DNA from: a bacterium
GTDB lineage: Bacteria > Patescibacteriota > Minisyncoccia > 2-02-FULL-40-12 > IGHO2-12-FULL-4
Length of the DNA: 46,831 nucleotides
NCBI GenBank assembly: GCA_030647955.1
Contig: JAUSIQ010000018.1
Span: 1-46,831 of the forward strand
Direction of reading: 5' to 3'
This document shows positions 1,635 to 46,831 of this stretch, piece after piece. Under the pieces are notes generated by a model, which saw nothing but the letters and a program-made list of their open reading frames with translations, searched no databases and was not told the DNA's origin. A program made the translations under genes and the position numbers. Within the stretch, counting starts at the first letter, position 1. Every line of letters begins with the position of its first letter.

Positions 1635-3377
1635 TTAGAGAGGGAGGGTAAAGTAGAAGGTTGAACCCTCACCCTCTTCGGATGCTACTCCGATAATTCC
1701 TCCGTGTTCTTCCACAATTCCCTTGGTGATAACTAAACCGAGTCCCGTTCCACGATTTTCCTGAATAATCGCCGAAGAGTTGAGTTGTTTAAATTTACTA
1801 AACAGGAGATCACTGTTTTCTTTGGAAATACCCACACCCGTATCCACTATCGCCACCACTACCGTATCCGGTAAATTCTGGAGTTTCTTATCTTCCGGAT
1901 TTAATTTCAAAGCCGATCCGGACTTTTGGGCCTCCGCAAAAATATCCTGGTCTTTATGATGCAAAAAAGCTTTTATCGTAATCGTTCCCCCGGCACTGGT
2001 AAACTTCAAAGCATTAGAAAGCAAGTTATTTAACACTTGCGAGATTCGCGCAGCATCAAAACTAACTAGCGCGGGAAGATCTGCATCAAACCAACTTTCT
2101 AACTCGATTTTGGCCGCCTGTGCTGAAGGTTTAAAGAAGTTTAATCTTGCCGCCACGGCTTCTTTTAAGTCCCCGGGTATTTTTTTAAGATCAAACTTAC
2201 CCGCTTCCAACTTGGCTACATCCAAGAGATCACTAACTAACTCCAAAATATTCGAGGAGCTGTCGTGTATCATCTGCGCATACTTATTCGTCATTTTTTT
2301 GCTCTTTTCCTCGTCCCATTTGCTCATGGCCATAGCGATTTTCTTAATACCGTCCATTGGTGAGCGCAATTCGTGCACCATCATGGAAGAAAAATCTTCA
2401 CGAGATTTTTGAATTTCTTTTTCACGGGTAATGTCGTGAAAAATAGCCACGGAGCCCAAGACTTCTCCCGCCTTTCCTCCCTCGGCCGCCTTCACGGGCA
2501 AAACGAAAATCTGGAAAAATCTTTCCCCGATCATAATATCTTCCGATTCCCAAACTTTGTTTAACTTTACACTCTCTTCTAGTTTGCCGCGAATATCTAC
2601 CCTACCCCCCAAGTTATCTATAAAATCAAAGATAGTTAGATCCGCTTTATCCTCCAACCCCATCACTCTCTTAACGGCCGGATTCGCCACCAAAACTCGA
2701 TAATCTTTGTCAGTCATTAACACGCCATCTTCCATGCTCTCTACCATGGCATTGAGTTTGCGCTGTTCGTTCTGCACCACTTCTTGCAACCTGGTTACGG
2801 CCTGCGAGGCTTGTCCCGTAATTTTGTAAATAATGGACATCTCTTCCTCTTTGTAGAGGCCGGGCTTGGTGTGAGCCACGGTTAAAATACCGACCACCTT
2901 TCCGGCAATAACCAAAGGAATATTAAAAAAAGAACCCACCGGCTCTTGAAAGTCTTCCACAATAATCGCTCCCGTTAAAACCTCTTCCAAGGTCATGCGC
3001 TTCAAATCCTGGTCCAGCAAAGCGGCTAGAGACTTCAGCATTCTCTCTTTCATCTCGTCCACAAATTTGCGATTGACCGACTTTTCAAGATCCACCCGGA
3101 AAAGGATTTTTTCCGGTTCCAAAAACATATACGAGACTACGGAGTAATCTATAAACTGGCGCAGAGAGCCAGTGATGATGTCGATGATTTGCTGAACGTC
3201 TAGAGAGTAGCCAATTCTGTCTCCTAATTCTTTTAAGATGGCCAACTCGTACATTTTGCGACTGACTTCTTCGTCTTTCTTTCTTAAAACTTTATGCAGC
3301 TTTTGAGATTGCCACAACGCCAAAACAACAAAGCCCAGCCCTACCAATTCAAAAGATATTCCGACAAGAATAGACAT
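1635..3377 (-). CDS. Sensor histidine kinase (TM-GAF-PAS-HisKA-HATPase)
   Basis: H-box MVHELRSP, N-box NLLSNALKFT, DTGVGI, GTGLGL, GEGSTFYFTLP. Confidence 0.95.
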   Translation of the reverse strand: MSILVGISFELVGLGFVVLALWQSQKLHKVLRKKDEEVSRKMYELAILKELGDRIGYSLDVQQIIDIITGSLRQFIDYSVVSYMFLEPEKILFRVDLEKSVNRKFVDEMKERMLKSLAALLDQDLKRMTLEEVLTGAIIVEDFQEPVGSFFNIPLVIAGKVVGILTVAHTKPGLYKEEEMSIIYKITGQASQAVTRLQEVVQNEQRKLNAMVESMEDGVLMTDKDYRVLVANPAVKRVMGLEDKADLTIFDFIDNLGGRVDIRGKLEESVKLNKVWESEDIMIGERFFQIFVLPVKAAEGGKAGEVLGSVAIFHDITREKEIQKSREDFSSMMVHELRSPMDGIKKIAMAMSKWDEEKSKKMTNKYAQMIHDSSSNILELVSDLLDVAKLEAGKFDLKKIPGDLKEAVAARLNFFKPSAQAAKIELESWFDADLPALVSFDAARISQVLNNLLSNALKFTSAGGTITIKAFLHHKDQDIFAEAQKSGSALKLNPEDKKLQNLPDTVVVAIVDTGVGISKENSDLLFSKFKQLNSSAIIQENRGTGLGLVITKGIVEEHGGIIGVASEEGEGSTFYFTLPL

Positions 3378-39467: not shown

Positions 39468-42400
39468 TTAGGGGTTAGCATTGCTCATGTCTTGCTGAAC
39501 CTCTGAAACAGTAAGTACTCGATCGTAAAGGTGAACCTCATCGATCTTGCCGTTAAAGTATTGACCAATTCCCCCGTAAGCACCAATGGTAGTAGGAAAG
39601 GCAGTGGAGGTCGGTGTACCACTATTCTGATTGGCACTTCCCGAAAGCGCGCCGTTGACATAAAGGTTGGCCGTGCCAGTCGCAGTTCTCGTCACACAAA
39701 CATGGGTCCAAGTGTTATTTAGAAGAGCATTATCTACCGAGCCGACGGTTGTCCCACCATTACTCGTAAAGTACACTCTATGATCATAGCCCCGGGCCAA
39801 AAGACCAAATCTGGTATTATCGACAACAGAGTTAAAGCCAGAGGGATAATTTGAGTAAATCCAGGCACAAGCACTAATCGTCCCAGTACTAATAAGGTTA
39901 CTACCAAGATTCACATAGTCATTGGTTCCGTCGAACAACAATCCGCCGCCACTTTTCCCTGTAGTCCAGGCAGGACCATTGGTGAGGGTGCCGAGATGGC
40001 CATTGCCGGAAGAGTCCTCAGCGACAGTGCCAGAACCTTCGGAAAAGGTATAAGAGGAGATCAAGCCACTGGGCAAAGGACTTTGTATAACGTTGTAGGT
40101 AGCCGTGTACGATTGGGCACTGGTGGGGACAGTGATAGTATGTAATCTCGCTTCTCCGTCAGACCAGGCAACAAAGTTGTACGAAGTGAGTCCTTGGTTT
40201 TGATCCGGAGCTTCCATGGTATGCTGGAAACCAATTAAGGTATCGAGTACAAACGGAGCGGTCTTGCTAATACCATCAAGCTTCAAAGTTAGTCCGCTCG
40301 GCGAGGTATTAAAGCTAAGGTTAACTTTATCGGGATAAACAACCACCGACTTCGTGTCAGTCAGACTATTAGAATCAGTCACCGTTAATTTAAACTCGTA
40401 ACGAGTATTGCCCTGAAAATCATGGCCGCTAGTAGGAACGGTGAAGCTTCCTGAAGTCACCCCCATAAAAGTCGGCCCAGGGTGGACATGTCCCTCGTGC
40501 AGAAAATTAACTTCCCAGGAAAACGTACTCTCCGGCAATGTACCGTCTTCTAAATCAGTGGCTTGTCCAGAAAAACTGATCACATCCCCCGCTCGAAATA
40601 GAGCATTGTTCTGCGGGGTAAGAATAGTTGCGGTCGGTTTGCTTCCTACCGTTACATAGACCGGTTCAGCCAGAGTAGTGTTAATGCTGTCAGAAACCGC
40701 CAGTCGCACAGTATACTGCCCAGCTTGAGTATAGACATGGCTGGGATTGGCGGCAGTAGATGAGGCCGTATCTCCGAAAGTCCAAAGATAGGTGAGGGGT
40801 TGATTTTCGGGATCAGACGAACCAGTGCTAGAGAAATCCACCGTCAGAGGTGCCGGACCAGAATCGGGATTAGCCGCAGCCATGGCTACCGGCGGCTGGT
40901 TAGTCTGAACATAGCGGATTCTTCGCACCTTACTTATGCCATCAGAGATTCCCAAATCCACATAATACAACGCCCCATCCGGACCCTCTGATAAGTAAAC
41001 AATGTCTCCGTAGGGTCCGTCCAAAGAACCATCAATCGGTTCGAAGTTTTGGGTACTCACCACATTACCATTGACATCGAGCACGAGACGTCTAATCCAA
41101 TTTTGAGCATAGTCTGCGTAAAAATAGTTACCTTGGTATTCGGATGGATATTGAGTGCCGTGATAAATAAACCCTCCGGTAATCGAAGCATCGCGATTAT
41201 TGTGAGGATACCAGAAGAGCGCATCAGTGTAGGCAGGATTGCCGCAGGCACCCTCGCAATTTGGCCAACCATAGTTAGCGCCAGCCACTCCGATATTGAC
41301 TTCTTCTTTAGCCACGGCCGGATCGTTTCCACCGACATCAGCAATATAGAATCTTCCCGTGGGGATATCGTAATACGCTCGGAACGGATTACGCAATCCA
41401 TAAGCCCAGATGGCTTCCAGGTTGGGACCGGCACCATCATCGAATGGATTATCGGTGGGGATGGTTCCGTCTGAATTGATGCGCAGAATCTTTCCGTGAT
41501 AAGTAGTGAGCAGTTGCGAGTCAGACGGAACAAAATGTTCGCCCACTGTGACGTACAGCTTCCCATCATTTCCAAAATTCAGAGCCCCACCATGGTGTTG
41601 AACATCGGCATCGACAATGTCTTGCCAAACAACGAATTCGCTTCCCGAGACAGTAGCATTACCACTGGCTGTAAAGCGCGACACTCGGTCACGGTTAGGA
41701 GAGCCCAAAGTATAAAACACGTAGTAGTATCCGTTGGTCGCAAAATTAGGGTCAAGAACCACATCCATCAAACCCTGCTCACCCAGAGATGTACCAATAT
41801 TACTCAACAGTAAGAAAGGGGTTGGATCCGGTTGGGTGGCACCCGGCTGAACCACACGAATCACCCCGCCAAGCTCGGCCAAAAGCATTCTACCGTCTGG
41901 CAAAAACTCAAGATTAGTAGCAAAGTTCGTTCCAGTGACGACAATTTCGTTCTGGAAAAATCCGGCATTAAACACAGTCACATTAACTGGGGACGAGACG
42001 GTGATGTTAACAGCCGCATCCCTAGCGCGCGCAGTCAAAGTGTGCGACCCATTGGAAGTAGGAATAGTATCCCAAGAAATGGTATACGGAGCATTGGTGT
42101 CTTCCACACCAAGATCCGCTCCATCTAACAAAAACTGCACACCAGACACTCCGACATTATCCGCCGCCGTCGCGGTAAGCGTCACAAAACCAGAAAGCTG
42201 TGCTCCACTTGTCGGAGAAGTAACCGAGACCGTCGGAGGAGTAGCGTCGCTAGGAATAGTGCCATTGGAGTTATAGACCGATAAAACCTCTTGGAAAGAC
42301 AGTGGGCGGTTATATATTTTTAATTCGTCCACATTACCGTACAAATTCATTCCTCCGATACTGCTATACTGGCCAATAGTGGCCGGAAAAGCAGTAGCTG

Positions 42401-44159
42401 TAGCTGTTCCGATATTTTGATTGATAGTTCCCGACAAAACCCCATTTACATAGAACGTGCCGGTATTACTGGTTCGAATAAAGCAGAAATGATTCCAAAC
42501 ATTGGACGGGAACTGGCTAGATACAGCAGTGAACATCCCATTACTGGTACCGAGCAAAGTTAAAGCATTGGAATCATACGTATCCACCACAATAGAGAAT
42601 CTGGTATTATCCAAAACGTCATTAAACCGAACAGGGGCGCCAGAGCGCTGAAACAGCCAGGCACAAACCGTGAGGTCCTGGGTGCCGATAATCGTGTCAT
42701 TCAATACGACATGGTCATTAACTCCGTCGAAACTTAAAGCCCCCGCCCCAATTTTGCCTGCAATCCAAGTTGGCCCGTTCACCAAAGTACCATTGTTATC
42801 ATTGCCGGAGGTATCTACCGCTAATGTACCCGTGCCAACATCTAGAGGATAGGAGCCGACTAGACCTGGCAGCTCACTGCTCGGTGGATTTACGGTAACC
42901 ACCGCATCATCGCTCGTCGACAAGGCCGAATCATCGGCGGTTAATCTTAAAGTGTATATACCCTCATCAGAAAAAGTGACGGTAGTATCTACCGCACCAG
43001 CATTACCAAAAGTCACTGTGCCCGGACCGCTAATCTTCGTCCAGATCGTAGTCACCGTAGATGGCGGATTCGGCAACCCATCATCACTAACCATACCGTC
43101 TAAATTGGCGACACTGCCCGAAGCAATACTCTGATCGTTCCCCGCACTTACTAACGGCGCATCATTAGTCTGCACCGGTGTCGTGAAAGTGAAATCAAGA
43201 GATTGGCCAAGATTATTGGACGCATCTCGCGAACGGACCTGATAATGATACAAAGTATTGGGCGCAAGACCATTCAAAACCACGCTATGGCTAGCAGTCA
43301 AAGTACTATTGAGTGTGCTCAAAGAGCCATACCCCGTGGTAAGACCAAAAGCCACCTGGGAATCGGCAGGCTCATCCGTCGTCCAGTTAATAGTGGCCGA
43401 ATTGTAAGTCACGGGGGAGGCACTAACGGCAGAGATCATCGGAGCCGTTGTATCTGGCGGAGCACCGGTATCATTGTAAACATCAGTCACCTCTTGAGAA
43501 GTAAGCACCTGGTTATATATTCTCACTTCGTCAATCTTGCCATTAAAATATTGCCCAACTCCGCCGTAGGCACCAATAGTAGTTGGGAAAGCCGTCGAGA
43601 GCGGATTACCGGTGCTTTGGTTTGGTGTACCAGATAAAACTCCGTTCACATAAACATTTCCGGTCCCGCCGGCTGTTCTGGTTACACATATATGCGTCCA
43701 TGTATTATTTGGAACGCTATTATTGGCCGATACGGCGGAAGCACCACCGTTACTGGTAAAGTACACCGCATGATTAAACCCACGGACATACAAACCAAAA
43801 CGCGTATTATCAAGTACAGAAGTAAATCCGCTTGGTAAATTAGAATACACCCAAGCGCAGGCACTAACTGCTCCAGTACTAACTAGGCTATTACCGAGAT
43901 TAACGTAGTCATTATTTCCATCAAAAGAGAGGCCGCCGCCGATTTTCCCCATGGTCCAGACTGGGCCATTGGTAAGTGTACCGGTATTACTATTACCCGA
44001 AGCGTCGACCGTAGTGGTACCGGAGCCTTCCGAGAAAGGATAAGCGGCAATGGGACTGGGCGCAGCCAAAGCATTCTCGGGCAAAAGATTAACAGTAGAA
44101 ATTACAGTCGACCCTATCACTAACATAACAAGCATCTGACGCAAAGATTTATTTTGCAT
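39468..44159 (-). CDS. Large secreted multidomain protein: 3x LamG, Fn3, PKD/Ig-like, PQQ-dependent glucose/sorbosone dehydrogenase beta-propeller
   Basis: LSFDG.NDYV/F.GKIDEV.IY (LamG), GEQGL, HHGG.L.FG.DGKLY, GKILRIN.DG, AYGLRNPFR, NYGWP, WTFGD (PKD). Confidence 0.92.
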   Translation of the reverse strand: MQNKSLRQMLVMLVIGSTVISTVNLLPENALAAPSPIAAYPFSEGSGTTTVDASGNSNTGTLTNGPVWTMGKIGGGLSFDGNNDYVNLGNSLVSTGAVSACAWVYSNLPSGFTSVLDNTRFGLYVRGFNHAVYFTSNGGASAVSANNSVPNNTWTHICVTRTAGGTGNVYVNGVLSGTPNQSTGNPLSTAFPTTIGAYGGVGQYFNGKIDEVRIYNQVLTSQEVTDVYNDTGAPPDTTAPMISAVSASPVTYNSATINWTTDEPADSQVAFGLTTGYGSLSTLNSTLTASHSVVLNGLAPNTLYHYQVRSRDASNNLGQSLDFTFTTPVQTNDAPLVSAGNDQSIASGSVANLDGMVSDDGLPNPPSTVTTIWTKISGPGTVTFGNAGAVDTTVTFSDEGIYTLRLTADDSALSTSDDAVVTVNPPSSELPGLVGSYPLDVGTGTLAVDTSGNDNNGTLVNGPTWIAGKIGAGALSFDGVNDHVVLNDTIIGTQDLTVCAWLFQRSGAPVRFNDVLDNTRFSIVVDTYDSNALTLLGTSNGMFTAVSSQFPSNVWNHFCFIRTSNTGTFYVNGVLSGTINQNIGTATATAFPATIGQYSSIGGMNLYGNVDELKIYNRPLSFQEVLSVYNSNGTIPSDATPPTVSVTSPTSGAQLSGFVTLTATAADNVGVSGVQFLLDGADLGVEDTNAPYTISWDTIPTSNGSHTLTARARDAAVNITVSSPVNVTVFNAGFFQNEIVVTGTNFATNLEFLPDGRMLLAELGGVIRVVQPGATQPDPTPFLLLSNIGTSLGEQGLMDVVLDPNFATNGYYYVFYTLGSPNRDRVSRFTASGNATVSGSEFVVWQDIVDADVQHHGGALNFGNDGKLYVTVGEHFVPSDSQLLTTYHGKILRINSDGTIPTDNPFDDGAGPNLEAIWAYGLRNPFRAYYDIPTGRFYIADVGGNDPAVAKEEVNIGVAGANYGWPNCEGACGNPAYTDALFWYPHNNRDASITGGFIYHGTQYPSEYQGNYFYADYAQNWIRRLVLDVNGNVVSTQNFEPIDGSLDGPYGDIVYLSEGPDGALYYVDLGISDGISKVRRIRYVQTNQPPVAMAAANPDSGPAPLTVDFSSTGSSDPENQPLTYLWTFGDTASSTAANPSHVYTQAGQYTVRLAVSDSINTTLAEPVYVTVGSKPTATILTPQNNALFRAGDVISFSGQATDLEDGTLPESTFSWEVNFLHEGHVHPGPTFMGVTSGSFTVPTSGHDFQGNTRYEFKLTVTDSNSLTDTKSVVVYPDKVNLSFNTSPSGLTLKLDGISKTAPFVLDTLIGFQHTMEAPDQNQGLTSYNFVAWSDGEARLHTITVPTSAQSYTATYNVIQSPLPSGLISSYTFSEGSGTVAEDSSGNGHLGTLTNGPAWTTGKSGGGLLFDGTNDYVNLGSNLISTGTISACAWIYSNYPSGFNSVVDNTRFGLLARGYDHRVYFTSNGGTTVGSVDNALLNNTWTHVCVTRTATGTANLYVNGALSGSANQNSGTPTSTAFPTTIGAYGGIGQYFNGKIDEVHLYDRVLTVSEVQQDMSNANP

Positions 44160-44228
44160 TGTTTTATTTAAATAAAATTATACCAATCAACGATTATAAT
44201 AAATCACAAAAAAACTTGCAAATCATGA

Positions 44229-44280
44229 AGACAAAATAAGACCCCCGAGAGCGAGGGCCACCACGACTTCGATCGGATAT
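44229..44280 (-). pseudogene. 52-bp internal fragment of a diverged pyrE allele
   Basis: 44/52 identity to 39163-39214; YPIEVVVALALGGLILS versus YPIEVVVAPALGGIILS. Confidence 0.88.
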
Positions 44281-44284
44281 CGGC

Positions 44285-44854
44285 CTAATTCGTCCAGTCA
44301 AATTCCACTACATTGGAGACGAGCGTCCCCTTCCATACATTTTCCATTATGCCACTTTCCTCTGAATCTTTGGCCTTCCAATAATCTTTCTTGCTCGTCC
44401 ACTCCACTTGCGCCATATACTTTCCCGGAGCTAGATTACTAAAATAATAAATTCCCCAACTCAAGACGCCGCCGCTCTTTTTATGTGTTCTTAGACTACT
44501 CGCAAATTCCTTTTCTTCTCCCGGTGCCAAGCGCACATAGTAGTCTTGGTAGATACTGGAATCAAACCTCATCGCCGCCAAGTCATCTTCGGCTTTAATC
44601 GTCTGACCAGCCGCATCTTTTAAAACTAGGTAGGAGGGCTGCAAAACGCTGTTTTCCAAAAAGACTTTCTCGGTGGACGAGTTGTTACGAATAACCGCCA
44701 CGAGTTCTCCATTCTCTCCCACCCTTAAACTTAAAGTCAACGGGTTTTCTGCTGCGTTTTCCATATTAAAAATTGTACCCCATTCTGATTTGGCAATCAA
44801 AAAGCCACCGACGATCAATCCTGCCACAATCCAGCTGTAGATCATTTTTCTCAT
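44285..44854 (-). CDS. Hypothetical membrane-anchored Ig-like protein
   Basis: N-terminal TM, L.PGE, L.PGKY, W.G.L.SN motifs; ATG 44854 preferred. Confidence 0.8.
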   Translation of the reverse strand: MRKMIYSWIVAGLIVGGFLIAKSEWGTIFNMENAAENPLTLSLRVGENGELVAVIRNNSSTEKVFLENSVLQPSYLVLKDAAGQTIKAEDDLAAMRFDSSIYQDYYVRLAPGEEKEFASSLRTHKKSGGVLSWGIYYFSNLAPGKYMAQVEWTSKKDYWKAKDSEESGIMENVWKGTLVSNVVEFDWTN

Positions 44855-44977
44855 AGCCTTTAATATAGTATACCGCAAGCGCGAGTAGGCACAATGAAGA
44901 TTTTTCGCCCTCCTCTCCTTCGTCTCTTCTCTCACCAAAAAGAAAAGGGCTTAATCAAAAAGCCGACGTTTAGTCGA

Positions 44978-45283
44978 CTACAAAGGTCGGATTTCTCCGA
45001 TAACTTTGGTAAATACTCTTACTCCTTGGTATTCAGTGGGAAAGGGAATATTGCCCGGTAATGGTTCTCGAAACCCGACCAAAAGACAAAAATCATCTTT
45101 AGTATCTGGACTGGCCTCTTTATCACAAATACTAACCATGGAAATCCCGCACGAATTTACATAATTCGAATACGGATGAGCAAAAAAATATTCCTTCACA
45201 AATTCCCCGTTAATACGCTTAACATCTTCGAACAAAAAACCCATTTCTCTCTCCTTCAAAAAGTACTCTTCACACTTTATCAC
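44978..45283 (-). CDS. Hypothetical protein
   Basis: AAGGAG RBS; P.EYQGV.V...VIGEI C-terminal motif. Confidence 0.75.
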   Translation of the reverse strand: MIKCEEYFLKEREMGFLFEDVKRINGEFVKEYFFAHPYSNYVNSCGISMVSICDKEASPDTKDDFCLLVGFREPLPGNIPFPTEYQGVRVFTKVIGEIRPL

Positions 45284-45319
45284 TCCTTAAATTGCGGGTA
45301 AAGGCTTGCGTCTACTGCA

Positions 45320-45907
45320 TTACGGGGCCGGAAGATGGCCGACCGATTGCCAAGCCTTGATGGCCTCGAGAGGATAAAGGAGCATGATGACATTCAGAGC
45401 GAGATTATCGCGCACCCAGAAAAGTGTGCCCAGCTCCATAGCGATAATCAAAACTACCGTAAGCCAAACCGGGAATTTATAAGCAAGATAAAAACCAAAT
45501 CCAGCCATGAACACATCGCTAAGCGAGTTAAAGACACTATCTCCCACATAGCCCAACGAGATGGTCACTTCGCGGTAGCGGTTAATAATGAGCGGAGAAT
45601 TTTCCAGAATTTCCCAACCCGCTTCCAAAAGCAACGCCCCAATGAACCGGTATTTCAAGGGTAGTCTTCTGGCCACCAGCCACAAGAAGGCATAAAACAG
45701 CATGCCATGGATGATATGCGAAAAAGTGTACGGATCGGCAAAGCGCTGAGACTGTTCACTACTCCACACATCCGCTTCCCAAAGACCCGGCTTCCCATCC
45801 GGTCCCCACGGCAACCGGCCCATCGAAAATTCCACCGCGGCCGTCACCGCCAAGATCACCACCACTGCCACAATAATCCATTTATATTTTTTCATTTTAT
45901 CGATCAT
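45320..45907 (-). CDS. DUF2585 (UPF0314) family membrane protein
   Basis: SQRFADPYTFSHIIHG, EAGWEILENSP.II.RYR, Y.GDSV.NS, RDNL.LN. Confidence 0.9.
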   Translation of the reverse strand: MIDKMKKYKWIIVAVVVILAVTAAVEFSMGRLPWGPDGKPGLWEADVWSSEQSQRFADPYTFSHIIHGMLFYAFLWLVARRLPLKYRFIGALLLEAGWEILENSPLIINRYREVTISLGYVGDSVFNSLSDVFMAGFGFYLAYKFPVWLTVVLIIAMELGTLFWVRDNLALNVIMLLYPLEAIKAWQSVGHLPAP

Positions 45908-46010
45908 TGATAGATAGTCTAAAAATGGATATGAAATCCCTATCTTCCATAGTCAAAGCATAACAAAACCAAGCATTTTTCAATAGTTAACATATGTTAA
46001 CTATTGATTC

Positions 46011-46146
46011 TGCGGAGAGAGTGAGATTTCTCTTCCTCCGAAAATTTCTGATGCCTTTGGCATATCGAAATTTTCTCCTCCAGAGTCCGGGTTTTCTAAA
46101 AAGTGAAACTATTCACTTTTTCTCAATACCCTTCGAATCACACTCC
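46011..46146 (-). repeat. tRNA-Ser 3'-end fold-back element 1
   Basis: 46011-46028 identical to the tRNA end 46195-46212; inverted T-arm copy TTCGAATCACACTC at 46132-46145; two inner hairpins. Confidence 0.85.
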
Positions 46147-46156
46147 AATCATAACA

Positions 46157-46192
46157 AATAATAAAGAGTGGCTAAAGCCACTCTTTATTATT
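46157..46192 (-). terminator. Terminator downstream of tRNA-Ser
   Basis: AATAATAAAGAGTGGCT-AA-AGCCACTCTTTATTATT. Confidence 0.85.
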
Positions 46193-46196
46193 GATG

Positions 46197-46283
46197 CGGA
46201 GAGAGTGAGATTCGAACTCACGAGGGTCGTGAGACCCTGGCGGTTTAGTAAACCGCTGCTTTCAGCCACTCAGCCATCTCTCC
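46197..46283 (-). tRNA. tRNA-Ser with ACT anticodon, long variable arm, CCA not encoded
   Basis: GGAGAGA/TCTCTCC, GCGGT-TTACTAA-ACCGC, AGGGTC..GACCCT variable arm, GTGAG-TTCGAAT-CTCAC, G73. Confidence 0.93.
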
Positions 46284-46307
46284 AATAAATTGCGAAAATG
46301 CCTTCCA

Positions 46308-46688
46308 CTAACGCTTCACCGGCGTTCCCTGATGGAAAAACATCTGCCAATTATCGTTCGTCTTTTTCCAGATTGAACTTCGGAGCGAGGTTACCTTATC
46401 GGTATCGTTAATCGTCCTTTCTGTTTTAAAAGTCGTTAATACAAAATTTTCGGACAGCTCTCTTGCTTGAAAGTCGCTTACGATAAACACAACCTTATCT
46501 GTAGATGTCGAAAGATTCTCAAGTGTATCTGCTTTTTTATACAAAGAGCCGGAACTCCCGAACTCCATAAAATCGTCAGTAAGCAATTTATCCAACCGCT
46601 CGCGAGAAGACCGCACTTCTGGTTCAAGAAGTGACATTTCGAGTTCGTAAAAAGTTTTATTTAAATCGTCCATATCTTTCAAAAACAC
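46308..46688 (-). CDS. DUF4440 (SnoaL/NTF2-like) protein
   Basis: LL.PEVRSS, LLTDDFMEFGSSG, SLRSSIW, WQMFFHQGT. Confidence 0.9.
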   Translation of the reverse strand: MFLKDMDDLNKTFYELEMSLLEPEVRSSRERLDKLLTDDFMEFGSSGSLYKKADTLENLSTSTDKVVFIVSDFQARELSENFVLTTFKTERTINDTDKVTSLRSSIWKKTNDNWQMFFHQGTPVKR

Positions 46689-46689
46689 T

Positions 46690-46810
46690 TGCGGAGGCGA
46701 GAGGATATCTCCTTCGGCTCTCGGCTCGCCGTCGCTCGCCTCGGCCTAGGCACCGCCTCGCGGTGTCGCCTACTAGCGACACATCTCTCCGGCGTTCGAA
46801 TCCTCTCTCT
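46690..46810 (-). repeat. tRNA-Ser 3'-end fold-back element 2 (different isoacceptor end)
   Basis: Minus strand GAGAGGATTCGAA-[GC-rich hairpins]-ATATCCTCTCGCCTCCGCA. Confidence 0.8.
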
Positions 46811-46831
46811 AGTCTCCAGAATAGCATAAAA

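Follow-up and report, generated by a model that had tools for sequence, protein, structure and literature searches.

Two families of hairpin-rich modules with copies of the neighbouring tRNA end stand behind tRNA genes of candidate phyla radiation bacteria

The window analysed here is the whole of contig JAUSIQ010000018.1 of assembly GCA_030647955.1 (46,831 nt), from a bacterium of the Patescibacteriota (Minisyncoccia; 2-02-FULL-40-12; IGHO2-12-FULL-4). Two elements near its right end, elements 1 and 2, belong to two families of small hairpin-rich modules that stand behind many tRNA genes in bacteria of the candidate phyla radiation (CPR). Each module combines an inverted copy of the neighbouring tRNA T-arm (X'), a conserved branched core and a direct copy of the tRNA from the T-loop to the 3' end (X). 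Our preferred, still tentative reading is that these are tiny insertion units without an integrase, seated at the tRNA 3' end, in which the fold-back would be the recombination seam. Below, t denotes a terminator-like palindrome. G000 is the genome of the window (0.94 Mb, 42 contigs, 53 tRNA genes and one transfer-messenger RNA (tmRNA) gene), and the window is its entire contig C32. Other G numbers denote related genomes, L numbers extracted loci, and g4, g8 and g10 genera.

The last 30 nt of each tRNA and tmRNA gene were compared with the gene's own downstream region in both senses. In G000, 12 of the 54 genes are followed, not more than 450 nt downstream, by a stretch of at least 12 nt that repeats their tail exactly and in the sense orientation. 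The upstream regions contain none (0/54), and downstream regions of permuted partners gave 0, 1 and 1 of 52-53. The pattern exceeds chance. Modules with the layout tRNA-X-t-X'-core-X were found behind 14 of the 54 genes. Thus the design noticed at two tRNA-Ser ends in the original prediction, made from the window sequence alone, does recur at other tRNAs of the genome.

The interiors of the G000 modules fall into two families, type A (like element 1) and type B (like element 2), so that elements 1 and 2 are indeed unrelated inside. A covariance model of type B (R1) has 11 matches in G000, ten strong and one weak. They lie behind the genes for Ser-GGA, Ser-GCT, Ile-TAT, Arg-TCT, tmRNA, Lys-TTT, Leu-CAA, Lys-CTT, Glu-CTC and Gly-TCC, and about 480 nt behind a tRNA-Met. 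The type A model (R2) has five matches, at Ser-ACT, Ala-CGC, Pro-CGG, tmRNA and Glu-CTC. The total is 16 modules, about 2 kb of DNA, and all type B (11/11) and type A (5/5) matches are downstream of a tRNA or tmRNA gene on the same strand. The tmRNA and tRNA-Glu genes are followed by one module of each type in tandem. An additional, third kind of interior was observed at tRNA-Pro(CGG). Immediately behind the genes for tRNA-Ser(CGA) and tRNA-Ser(TGA), without an intervening terminator, stands a GC-rich hairpin element common to both, starting TTCGCTCGCCGAAGCGAGC (G000:C7 ~1830-1951, minus strand; C33:1922-2052), and a similar stretch lies past X of a type A module in G001 (L198). This element may be a further module type.

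Both families have a strongly supported fold. The ten type B copies of G000 form a three-way junction of 35 pairs, 29 of which show compensatory changes. Over 106 type B matches (104 distinct) from 100 loci, 93.5% of the cells are paired in an alignment fitted to the model, which favours pairing, and 33 of the 35 pairs have changed on both sides. None of 500 shuffles attained the observed values, and sliding of the partners lowers pairing to 34-44%. Type A, in an alignment of eight sequences, also forms a three-way junction, with 46 pairs, 17 of them compensatory. In the core helices of type B, G-U oppositions outnumber A-C oppositions (52 vs 15; 27 vs 20 in the closing stem), so that the folding strand is the tRNA-sense one. 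Oppositions of G-A and A-G are common, and X' has GA facing the T-loop G57-A58 in 24-26 of 78 copies. Both core families contain invariant unpaired bases. The interiors are therefore not conserved in structure only, as the comparison with integron attC sites had supposed.

The arms, that is, the terminal repeats, differ from locus to locus. Within the T-loop, X begins at position 56 (type B) or 57 (type A), and it ends at the discriminator base. The closing stem mostly comprises no more than the T-loop and T-stem. Upstream sequence complementary to the acceptor strand is no commoner than in the control (at least six of seven pairs in 48% of 99 copies vs 41%), and the part of X that corresponds to the acceptor equals the tRNA even though it mostly lacks a partner to pair with. 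Positions 56-65 of the tRNA are reproduced by X in 37 of 78 copies and by X' in 15, with a few T-loops mis-parsed. The modules are, as first proposed, structure-defined fold-backs tailored to single tRNAs, with the extra inverted copy as a regular feature. The proposal that a single strand rebuilds the tRNA-end duplex stands for the T-loop and T-stem, whereas the whole acceptor end is usually not rebuilt.

A covariance-model survey of 61 genomes of the order found type B in 49, with 0-13 copies per genome. The copy number varies widely within genera (12, 0, 6 and 4 in g10), and is 0 even in some complete genomes. At 18 of 29 loci from relatives, a same-strand tRNA or tmRNA gene lies just upstream, and its tail has at least 10 nt in common with the 3' end of the element; several of the remaining loci have intron-containing tRNAs overlooked in the first ARAGORN pass. 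The tRNA genes beside type B modules at L027, L029, L030 and L036 are split by long inserts resembling group I introns. Type A occurs in 11 of the 61 genomes, mostly in the window's own family, and six of seven type A loci from relatives are adjacent to a tRNA gene, with matched arms.

A wider scan for an exact type B pattern took one genome from each species and yielded at least 118 stretches. The titles of their records almost all name Patescibacteria or a particular CPR lineage; a few stretches occur in GC-rich non-CPR genomes and have no tRNA neighbour. Among 80 fetched loci, 60 have an upstream tRNA or tmRNA gene on the same strand; the sense copy is at least 12 nt long in 44 and at least 17 nt in 33. 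The neighbours represent 16 tRNA types plus tmRNA, and so the system is not a serine-type one, as the pair in the window had suggested. In viral contigs the exact pattern had no matches, and a looser pattern had one, which was rejected by R1 and ARAGORN. Full-text searches, with subscription journals and supplements outside their scope, found no description of these modules.

Both window elements, with inverted and direct tRNA-end copies on the minus strand, were found where the prediction had placed them (Table 1). In minus-strand order, this region consists of element 2, a DUF4440 gene, tRNA-Ser(ACT), a terminator-like palindrome, element 1, a second palindrome and a DUF2585 gene; the identities of the two protein genes, proposed from translations, agree with the Pfam matches. 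In element 1, nine of the 11 stem positions of X' are paired in the family alignment, and 103 nt separate X' from X. There is no open reading frame (ORF) between tRNA-Ser(ACT) and element 1. Fold stability is above that of shuffles for both elements (z = -3.17 for element 1, -2.20 for element 2). A promoter scan found no sigma-70-like site ahead of element 1; a promoter-like site was seen at 45894-45923, by the DUF2585 gene. Neither element is called as a tRNA by ARAGORN or Rfam. Nothing in Rfam accounts for either of them: at E values up to 10, element 2 has no match at all, and element 1 has only sub-threshold matches far under the gathering scores.

Table 1. Features of the right end of the window (positions in the 46,831-nt stretch)
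Feature	Position	Strand	Remarks
Element 2, type B fold-back module	46685..46813	-	Bounds from covariance-model match (R1, 123.4 bits); three-way junction, 35 pairs
Element 2 X'	46794..46817	-	Inverted 3' part of tRNA-Ser(GGA); insertion of 4-5 nt and one mismatch
Element 2 X	46690..46706	-	Direct copy of tRNA-Ser(GGA): T-stem 3' strand, acceptor 3' strand, discriminator; 16/16 identical to C13:884-899
DUF4440 gene	46308..46688	-	Pfam PF14534, E = 2.4e-16; flanking DNA past element 2, outside the unit
tRNA-Ser(ACT)	46196..46283	-	ARAGORN; Rfam tRNA, 56.8 bits; T-loop-to-3' end is the first repeat copy (X1) for element 1
Terminator-like palindrome t	46157..46192	-	Between tRNA-Ser(ACT) and element 1; 16 pairs, then T-rich tail
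Element 1, type A fold-back module	46002..46152	-	Bounds from covariance-model match (R2, 161.4 bits)
Element 1 X'	46132..46146	-	GGAGTGTGATTCGAA; imperfect inverted copy of tRNA-Ser(ACT) T-stem and T-loop, ending TTCGAA
Element 1 X	46011..46028	-	Exact direct copy of tRNA-Ser(ACT), T-loop to discriminator, plus CA; 18/18 identical
Perfect palindrome, 28 nt	45980..46007		Directly past X of element 1
DUF2585 gene	45320..45907	-	Pfam PF10755, E = 3e-67; flanking DNA past element 1

Some further observations concern the same region. The tRNA-Ser next to element 1 has the anticodon ACT, with A at the wobble position, and a separate tRNA-Ser(GCT) is encoded on C33. A34 is unusual in bacterial tRNAs other than tRNA-Arg; ARAGORN calls a tRNA-Ser with anticodon ACT in G042 as well (L192). 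A 30-nt stretch identical to the palindrome past element 1 occurs in G010, a genome of another family. Further to the left, an ORF of 1563 codons (39468-44159, minus strand) contains, on reading by eye, repeated lectin-like and glucose/sorbosone-dehydrogenase-like segments, and probably encodes a large surface protein.

The tRNA of element 2 lies on another contig. Extension to the right had been expected to reveal a tRNA-Ser with the matching end, and this gene, tRNA-Ser(GGA), was found on the minus strand at G000:C13:882-969, ending AGAGGTTCGAATCCTCTCGCCTCCGCCA as predicted. Since C13:1-43 is identical to window positions 46831-46789, contigs C32 and C13 join. Across the junction, tRNA-Ser(GGA) is followed by a terminator-like hairpin, a short remnant resembling X' (GGGATTCGAAC), two ORFs (137 and 63 amino acids, neither with a Pfam match), a second terminator-like hairpin, and element 2. 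Read this way, element 2 stands about 860 nt behind its tRNA, with genes between. The window itself ends inside a module. Contigs assembled from four DNA runs over 44200-46831 contain no joint that skips an element; they stop inside both elements and are uninformative on empty sites.

The repeating unit is X-t-X'-core, followed by another X, and is about 130-220 nt long. At L042 two identical units stand in tandem, with no gene within. The same is true of L026, except that only the 5' halves of its two units are near-identical and the 3' halves have diverged. After the tmRNA gene of G000 come a type B unit, then one of type A, then an incomplete repeat of the first that lacks the core. Behind tRNA-Ile(TAT) the repeat reaches through the terminator. 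The distance from tRNA to core is below 110 nt in about nine in ten of 59 loci, which leaves no room for a gene in these copies, and a design made chiefly of gene cassettes is not supported. Genes occasionally stand between tRNA and hairpin, as at the junction of C32 and C13 and at L032. Genes of a unit, where present, thus precede the hairpin, and the accessory genes past the two window hairpins, which had been assigned to them, are flanking DNA.

A much longer interval was found in G042, where two overlapping contigs (L192 and L191; C51 and C20; overlap 55 nt) place about 8 kb between tRNA-Ser(GCT) and a type B module. The order is tRNA-Ser(GCT), a large serine recombinase gene, about 6.8 kb of genes, a terminator-like hairpin and X'-core-X. 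The recombinase, the only protein of this stretch checked by Pfam, has Resolvase, Recombinase and Zn_ribbon_recom domains. Its gene adjoins the tRNA; the stretch further encodes a helix-turn-helix protein, membrane proteins and an ORF resembling oxidoreductases of the flavin adenine dinucleotide type. Since G000 lacks a serine recombinase despite its 16 modules, we take the stretch to be a later, separate island that displaced an older module outward. Accretion of this kind is described for tycheposons (10.1101/2020.12.28.424599).

The history of the modules was followed in the core tree and at orthologous loci. The tree shows no clustering by tRNA type (51 changes vs a shuffled mean of 51.1; 67 labelled rows, 17 states) and none of the copies of G000 (10 vs 10.6), with modest clustering by lineage (27 vs 37.5). 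It is poorly resolved (84 columns, 50 of 100 inner branches open), and the missing clustering by tRNA type accordingly carries little weight. In genus g4, both G003 and G007 have a type A module behind tRNA-Ser(GCT), with compensatory differences in the hairpin and different DNA past X. Elsewhere the homology of these two genomes stops at a type B module, which thus marks a synteny break. At the tRNA-Asp locus of g8 a module is present in six of six genomes; the cores there have diverged, been rearranged or become composite. The P3 helix of the core is common to G044 and G017, whereas their arms track the tRNA allele of each genome (CCCAT with TTGGG vs CCCTT with AAGGG). Since the arms follow the local alleles, the tRNA, X' and X change in concert. 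In G011:C7 (L205, minus view 358-480), a complete tRNA-Asp that represents another allele precedes a 3' fragment of the tRNA-Asp typical of the genus; the fragment starts in the anticodon stem. This fragment marks a separate integration event with a crossover near the anticodon loop.

No integrase gene lies inside the DNA bounded by the tRNA and element 1 or element 2, and, as originally noted, no enzyme is encoded beside the elements. In G000 the tyrosine recombinase domain PF00589 was matched on C41, C38 and C30, none of them beside a module array. A retron-type reverse transcriptase was considered as a partner and rejected: the only matches are on C25 and are attributed to a diversity-generating retroelement. 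There, a reverse transcriptase gene (PF00078; G000:C25:69263-71733) stands beside genes that by eye resemble the four-helix-bundle accessory protein and the variable protein of such elements. Small GIY-YIG nuclease genes were also seen near hairpins or tail copies. A GIY-YIG gene of 90 codons lies between tRNA-Gln(TTG) and a 15-nt second copy of its tail (G000:C28:4086-4499, minus strand), and hairpin repeats GTCATTCCCGC...GCGGGAATCC, a separate short repeat family, flank another one (G000:C17:12100-13050).

We tentatively suggest the following mechanism. A unit would consist of X, a replacement T-loop-to-3' end that completes the tRNA, then t, occasionally one or a few genes, X' and a type A or type B core; the next X downstream would be the displaced original end of the tRNA. 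Elements 1 and 2 would be the far ends of such units. On the tRNA-sense single strand, pairing of X' with the downstream X would close the core and give a fold-back. A recombinase or nuclease whose gene lies elsewhere would act on this form, as with integron attC or the folded attP of CTX phage. New units would enter beside the tRNA and displace older ones outward. The arms may stay matched because X1-t-X' and X'-core-X2 are short quasi-palindromes, which template switching or gene conversion could correct against the selected tRNA copy. The sequences themselves show the anatomy, the fold and its strand, the distribution, the units in tandem or with genes, and the joint change of the arms; insertion of DNA, a folded strand as the substrate, an acting enzyme and this mode of correction are what we infer.

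Insertion at the level of DNA explains the most features: where the copies start and end, the terminator after the tRNA, the tandems, the units with genes, accretion, the volatile copy number, the synteny breaks, and the unpaired acceptor part identical to the tRNA. Integrases that target the T-loop reportedly leave a repeat starting where X starts (an observation ascribed to Williams, 2002). The terminator-like hairpin ahead of element 1 and the lack of a promoter-like site there also count for insertion units, as do the arms that follow the local tRNA allele in g8 and, weakly, the cores that do not cluster by tRNA type. That the active form is a folded single strand is suggested by the inverted copy together with the covariation of the core, which is specific to one strand.

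Several observations weigh on the other side. Wherever a tRNA neighbour could be found, the core has one and the same orientation towards it, and at the tRNA-Asp locus of g8 the module has been kept throughout the genus. No clean pair of a filled and an empty orthologous site was obtained from the two comparisons made, G007 with G003 and the six genomes of g8; the former proved to be a rearranged locus with a different tRNA-Ser. No enzyme could be linked to the modules. G000 has two Xer-like tyrosine recombinases (identified from the translations by eye) and one island integrase at tRNA-Tyr, and has neither a serine recombinase nor a Y1 transposase (Y1_Tnp). GIY-YIG nucleases, which the original prediction had listed among the genes for a test of co-occurrence, are present in all 61 genomes with 1-15 matches each, but the counts of small GIY-YIG genes do not follow the type B copy number, and we rejected them as the enzyme. 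Insertion does not by itself explain why one core family serves at least 16 tRNA types plus tmRNA. Finally, invariant unpaired bases and many tandem G-A pairs across very distant lineages would suit a functional RNA just as well as a site in DNA.

Some of these points lead to the main rival reading, less probable in our view but to be taken seriously, that the modules are small structured RNA genes, read through from the tRNA or transcribed on their own. The X':X helix would mimic the T-arm and bear the 3' tail of the tRNA, and the RNA would be cut out and stabilised by tRNA-processing enzymes or bind a protein that normally handles the tRNA in question. The strong covariation and the invariant unpaired bases of copies from all over the CPR fit such a role, as do the G-U excess on the tRNA-sense strand, the recurrent tandem G-A pairs (including the one that faces the T-loop), the constant orientation, the terminator-like hairpin past X in many copies and the retention of the module in all six g8 genomes. 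However, a strong terminator-like hairpin separates element 1 from its tRNA with no sigma-70-like promoter behind it, and a stable hairpin with a T-run stands between tRNA and X' in several other copies of G000, as judged by eye rather than by a scan. The range of 0-13 copies among relatives, with none in some complete genomes, is unlike an essential RNA. A full mimic of the acceptor stem is not general, the observed pairing being close to that of the control, and exact copies of 17-21 nt at many tRNAs have no explanation without copying at the DNA level.

It is also possible, with still lower probability, that the core is itself an active device. The folded strand would show a duplex copy of the neighbouring T-arm and so direct recombination, or another enzyme, to that place, with the arms re-templated; such a device would copy its target, retarget itself, carry no enzyme and be CPR-wide. 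Alternatively, the modules would be RNA mimics specific for each tRNA.

We consider it improbable that the arrangement is a by-product, in which ordinary integrative elements left displaced tRNA ends behind, a selfish palindrome-seeking core settled in or beside them later, and the arms, grown by quasi-palindrome correction, serve no purpose themselves. Decayed or rearranged copies are indeed common, and X shares less than 12 nt with the tRNA at 16 of 60 loci; G054 has composite remnants, and in G044 the X copy is interrupted by a small GC-rich palindrome. Moreover, ordinary islands use the same tRNAs, and other palindromic repeats exist in G000. However, covariation at 33 of 35 pairs in 104 distinct copies requires that the fold be under selection. 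The same architecture surrounds two unrelated cores, and no core was found outside the X'/X frame in the loci that could be checked. All 16 matches of G000 are downstream of a tRNA or tmRNA gene. An integron-like gene-cassette system on tRNA-Ser, with each hairpin as the attC of the following accessory gene, could appeal to the small genes past both window hairpins and the two small ORFs ahead of element 2, but is already contradicted by the family-wide counts (16 tRNA types plus tmRNA, about nine in ten copies free of genes), by the lack of any gene family recurring past the hairpin in loci read by eye and not tabulated, and by the position of the three tyrosine recombinases of G000 away from any array, and is very improbable.

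Three narrower ideas were rejected. The core does not stand in the T-loop of a duplicated tRNA, as T-loops that are not palindromic show X' to be antisense rather than sense. A tRNA-shaped RNA with an acceptor stem and a side hairpin can be drawn for some copies, but is not above control across the family. Retro-copying, which would leave CCA in X where the gene lacks it, has no signal in the tRNA 3' ends of G000, since the tRNA genes end in CCA or CA irrespective of modules; about half of them encode CA rather than CCA after the discriminator base.

The modules resemble several known systems, each in part. They have in common with tRNA and tmRNA genomic islands, tycheposons and cis-mobilizable elements (CIMEs) the direct repeat of the 3' part from the T-loop on, a tRNA kept intact by the copy that the element brings, the use of tmRNA as a target, and outward displacement. 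CIMEs are integrase-less derivatives of islands integrated at tRNA genes. In the tycheposon text the word 'hairpin' does not occur, and 'inverted repeat' occurs only in the reference list (Hackl et al., 10.1101/2020.12.28.424599). Unlike such islands, the modules are only about 130-220 nt long, have no integrase, contain the added inverted T-arm copy and a three-way-junction core, and one core family serves at least 16 tRNA types plus tmRNA.

Integron attC sites are similar in their imperfect inverted repeats that fold as a single strand, one per unit, in tandem arrays beside a fixed entry site. However, the modules have a conserved branched core, arms copied from tRNA instead of R and L boxes, and mostly no genes. 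The single-strand fold typical of attC is supported, but the core sequence is also highly conserved. No IntI was found: the PF00589 matches of G000 are not next to arrays (features specific to IntI lay outside the test). In the folded attP of CTX-type phages, which use the host Xer, a stem copies the chromosomal target, as the closing stem of the modules may do, and the element likewise has no recombinase of its own; G000 has Xer-like recombinases, as read by eye from the translations. Here the target is the T-arm of a tRNA, not dif, and there is no phage genome. Use of Xer by the modules is pure conjecture.

Like MITEs (miniature inverted-repeat transposable elements), repetitive extragenic palindromic (REP) sequences and bacterial interspersed mosaic elements (BIMEs), the modules are short, non-coding, intergenic, multi-copy and hairpin-forming. 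However, their terminal repeats differ at each locus and equal the tail of the neighbouring tRNA, they stand strictly behind tRNA genes, and G000 has no Y1 transposase. With tRNA-like structures and tRNA-linked small RNAs they share a helix copying the T-arm and a 3' tail identical to the tRNA, beside a real tRNA gene, whereas they have no D arm, anticodon arm or T-loop, and a full acceptor stem is not general.

Bacteria of the CPR have tiny genomes with few recognised mobile elements, yet there are 16 modules in the genome studied here and up to 13 type B copies in its relatives. If the modules are insertion seams, they would mark sites of DNA uptake and shuffling, and would represent a new, enzyme-less use of tRNA genes as landing sites in which a folded strand reproduces the target. 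If they are instead RNAs, the modules would form a large unrecognised RNA family tied to individual tRNAs. In either case the modules break assemblies, create calls of tRNA fragments and mark synteny breakpoints, and are thus relevant to the annotation of thousands of CPR genomes.

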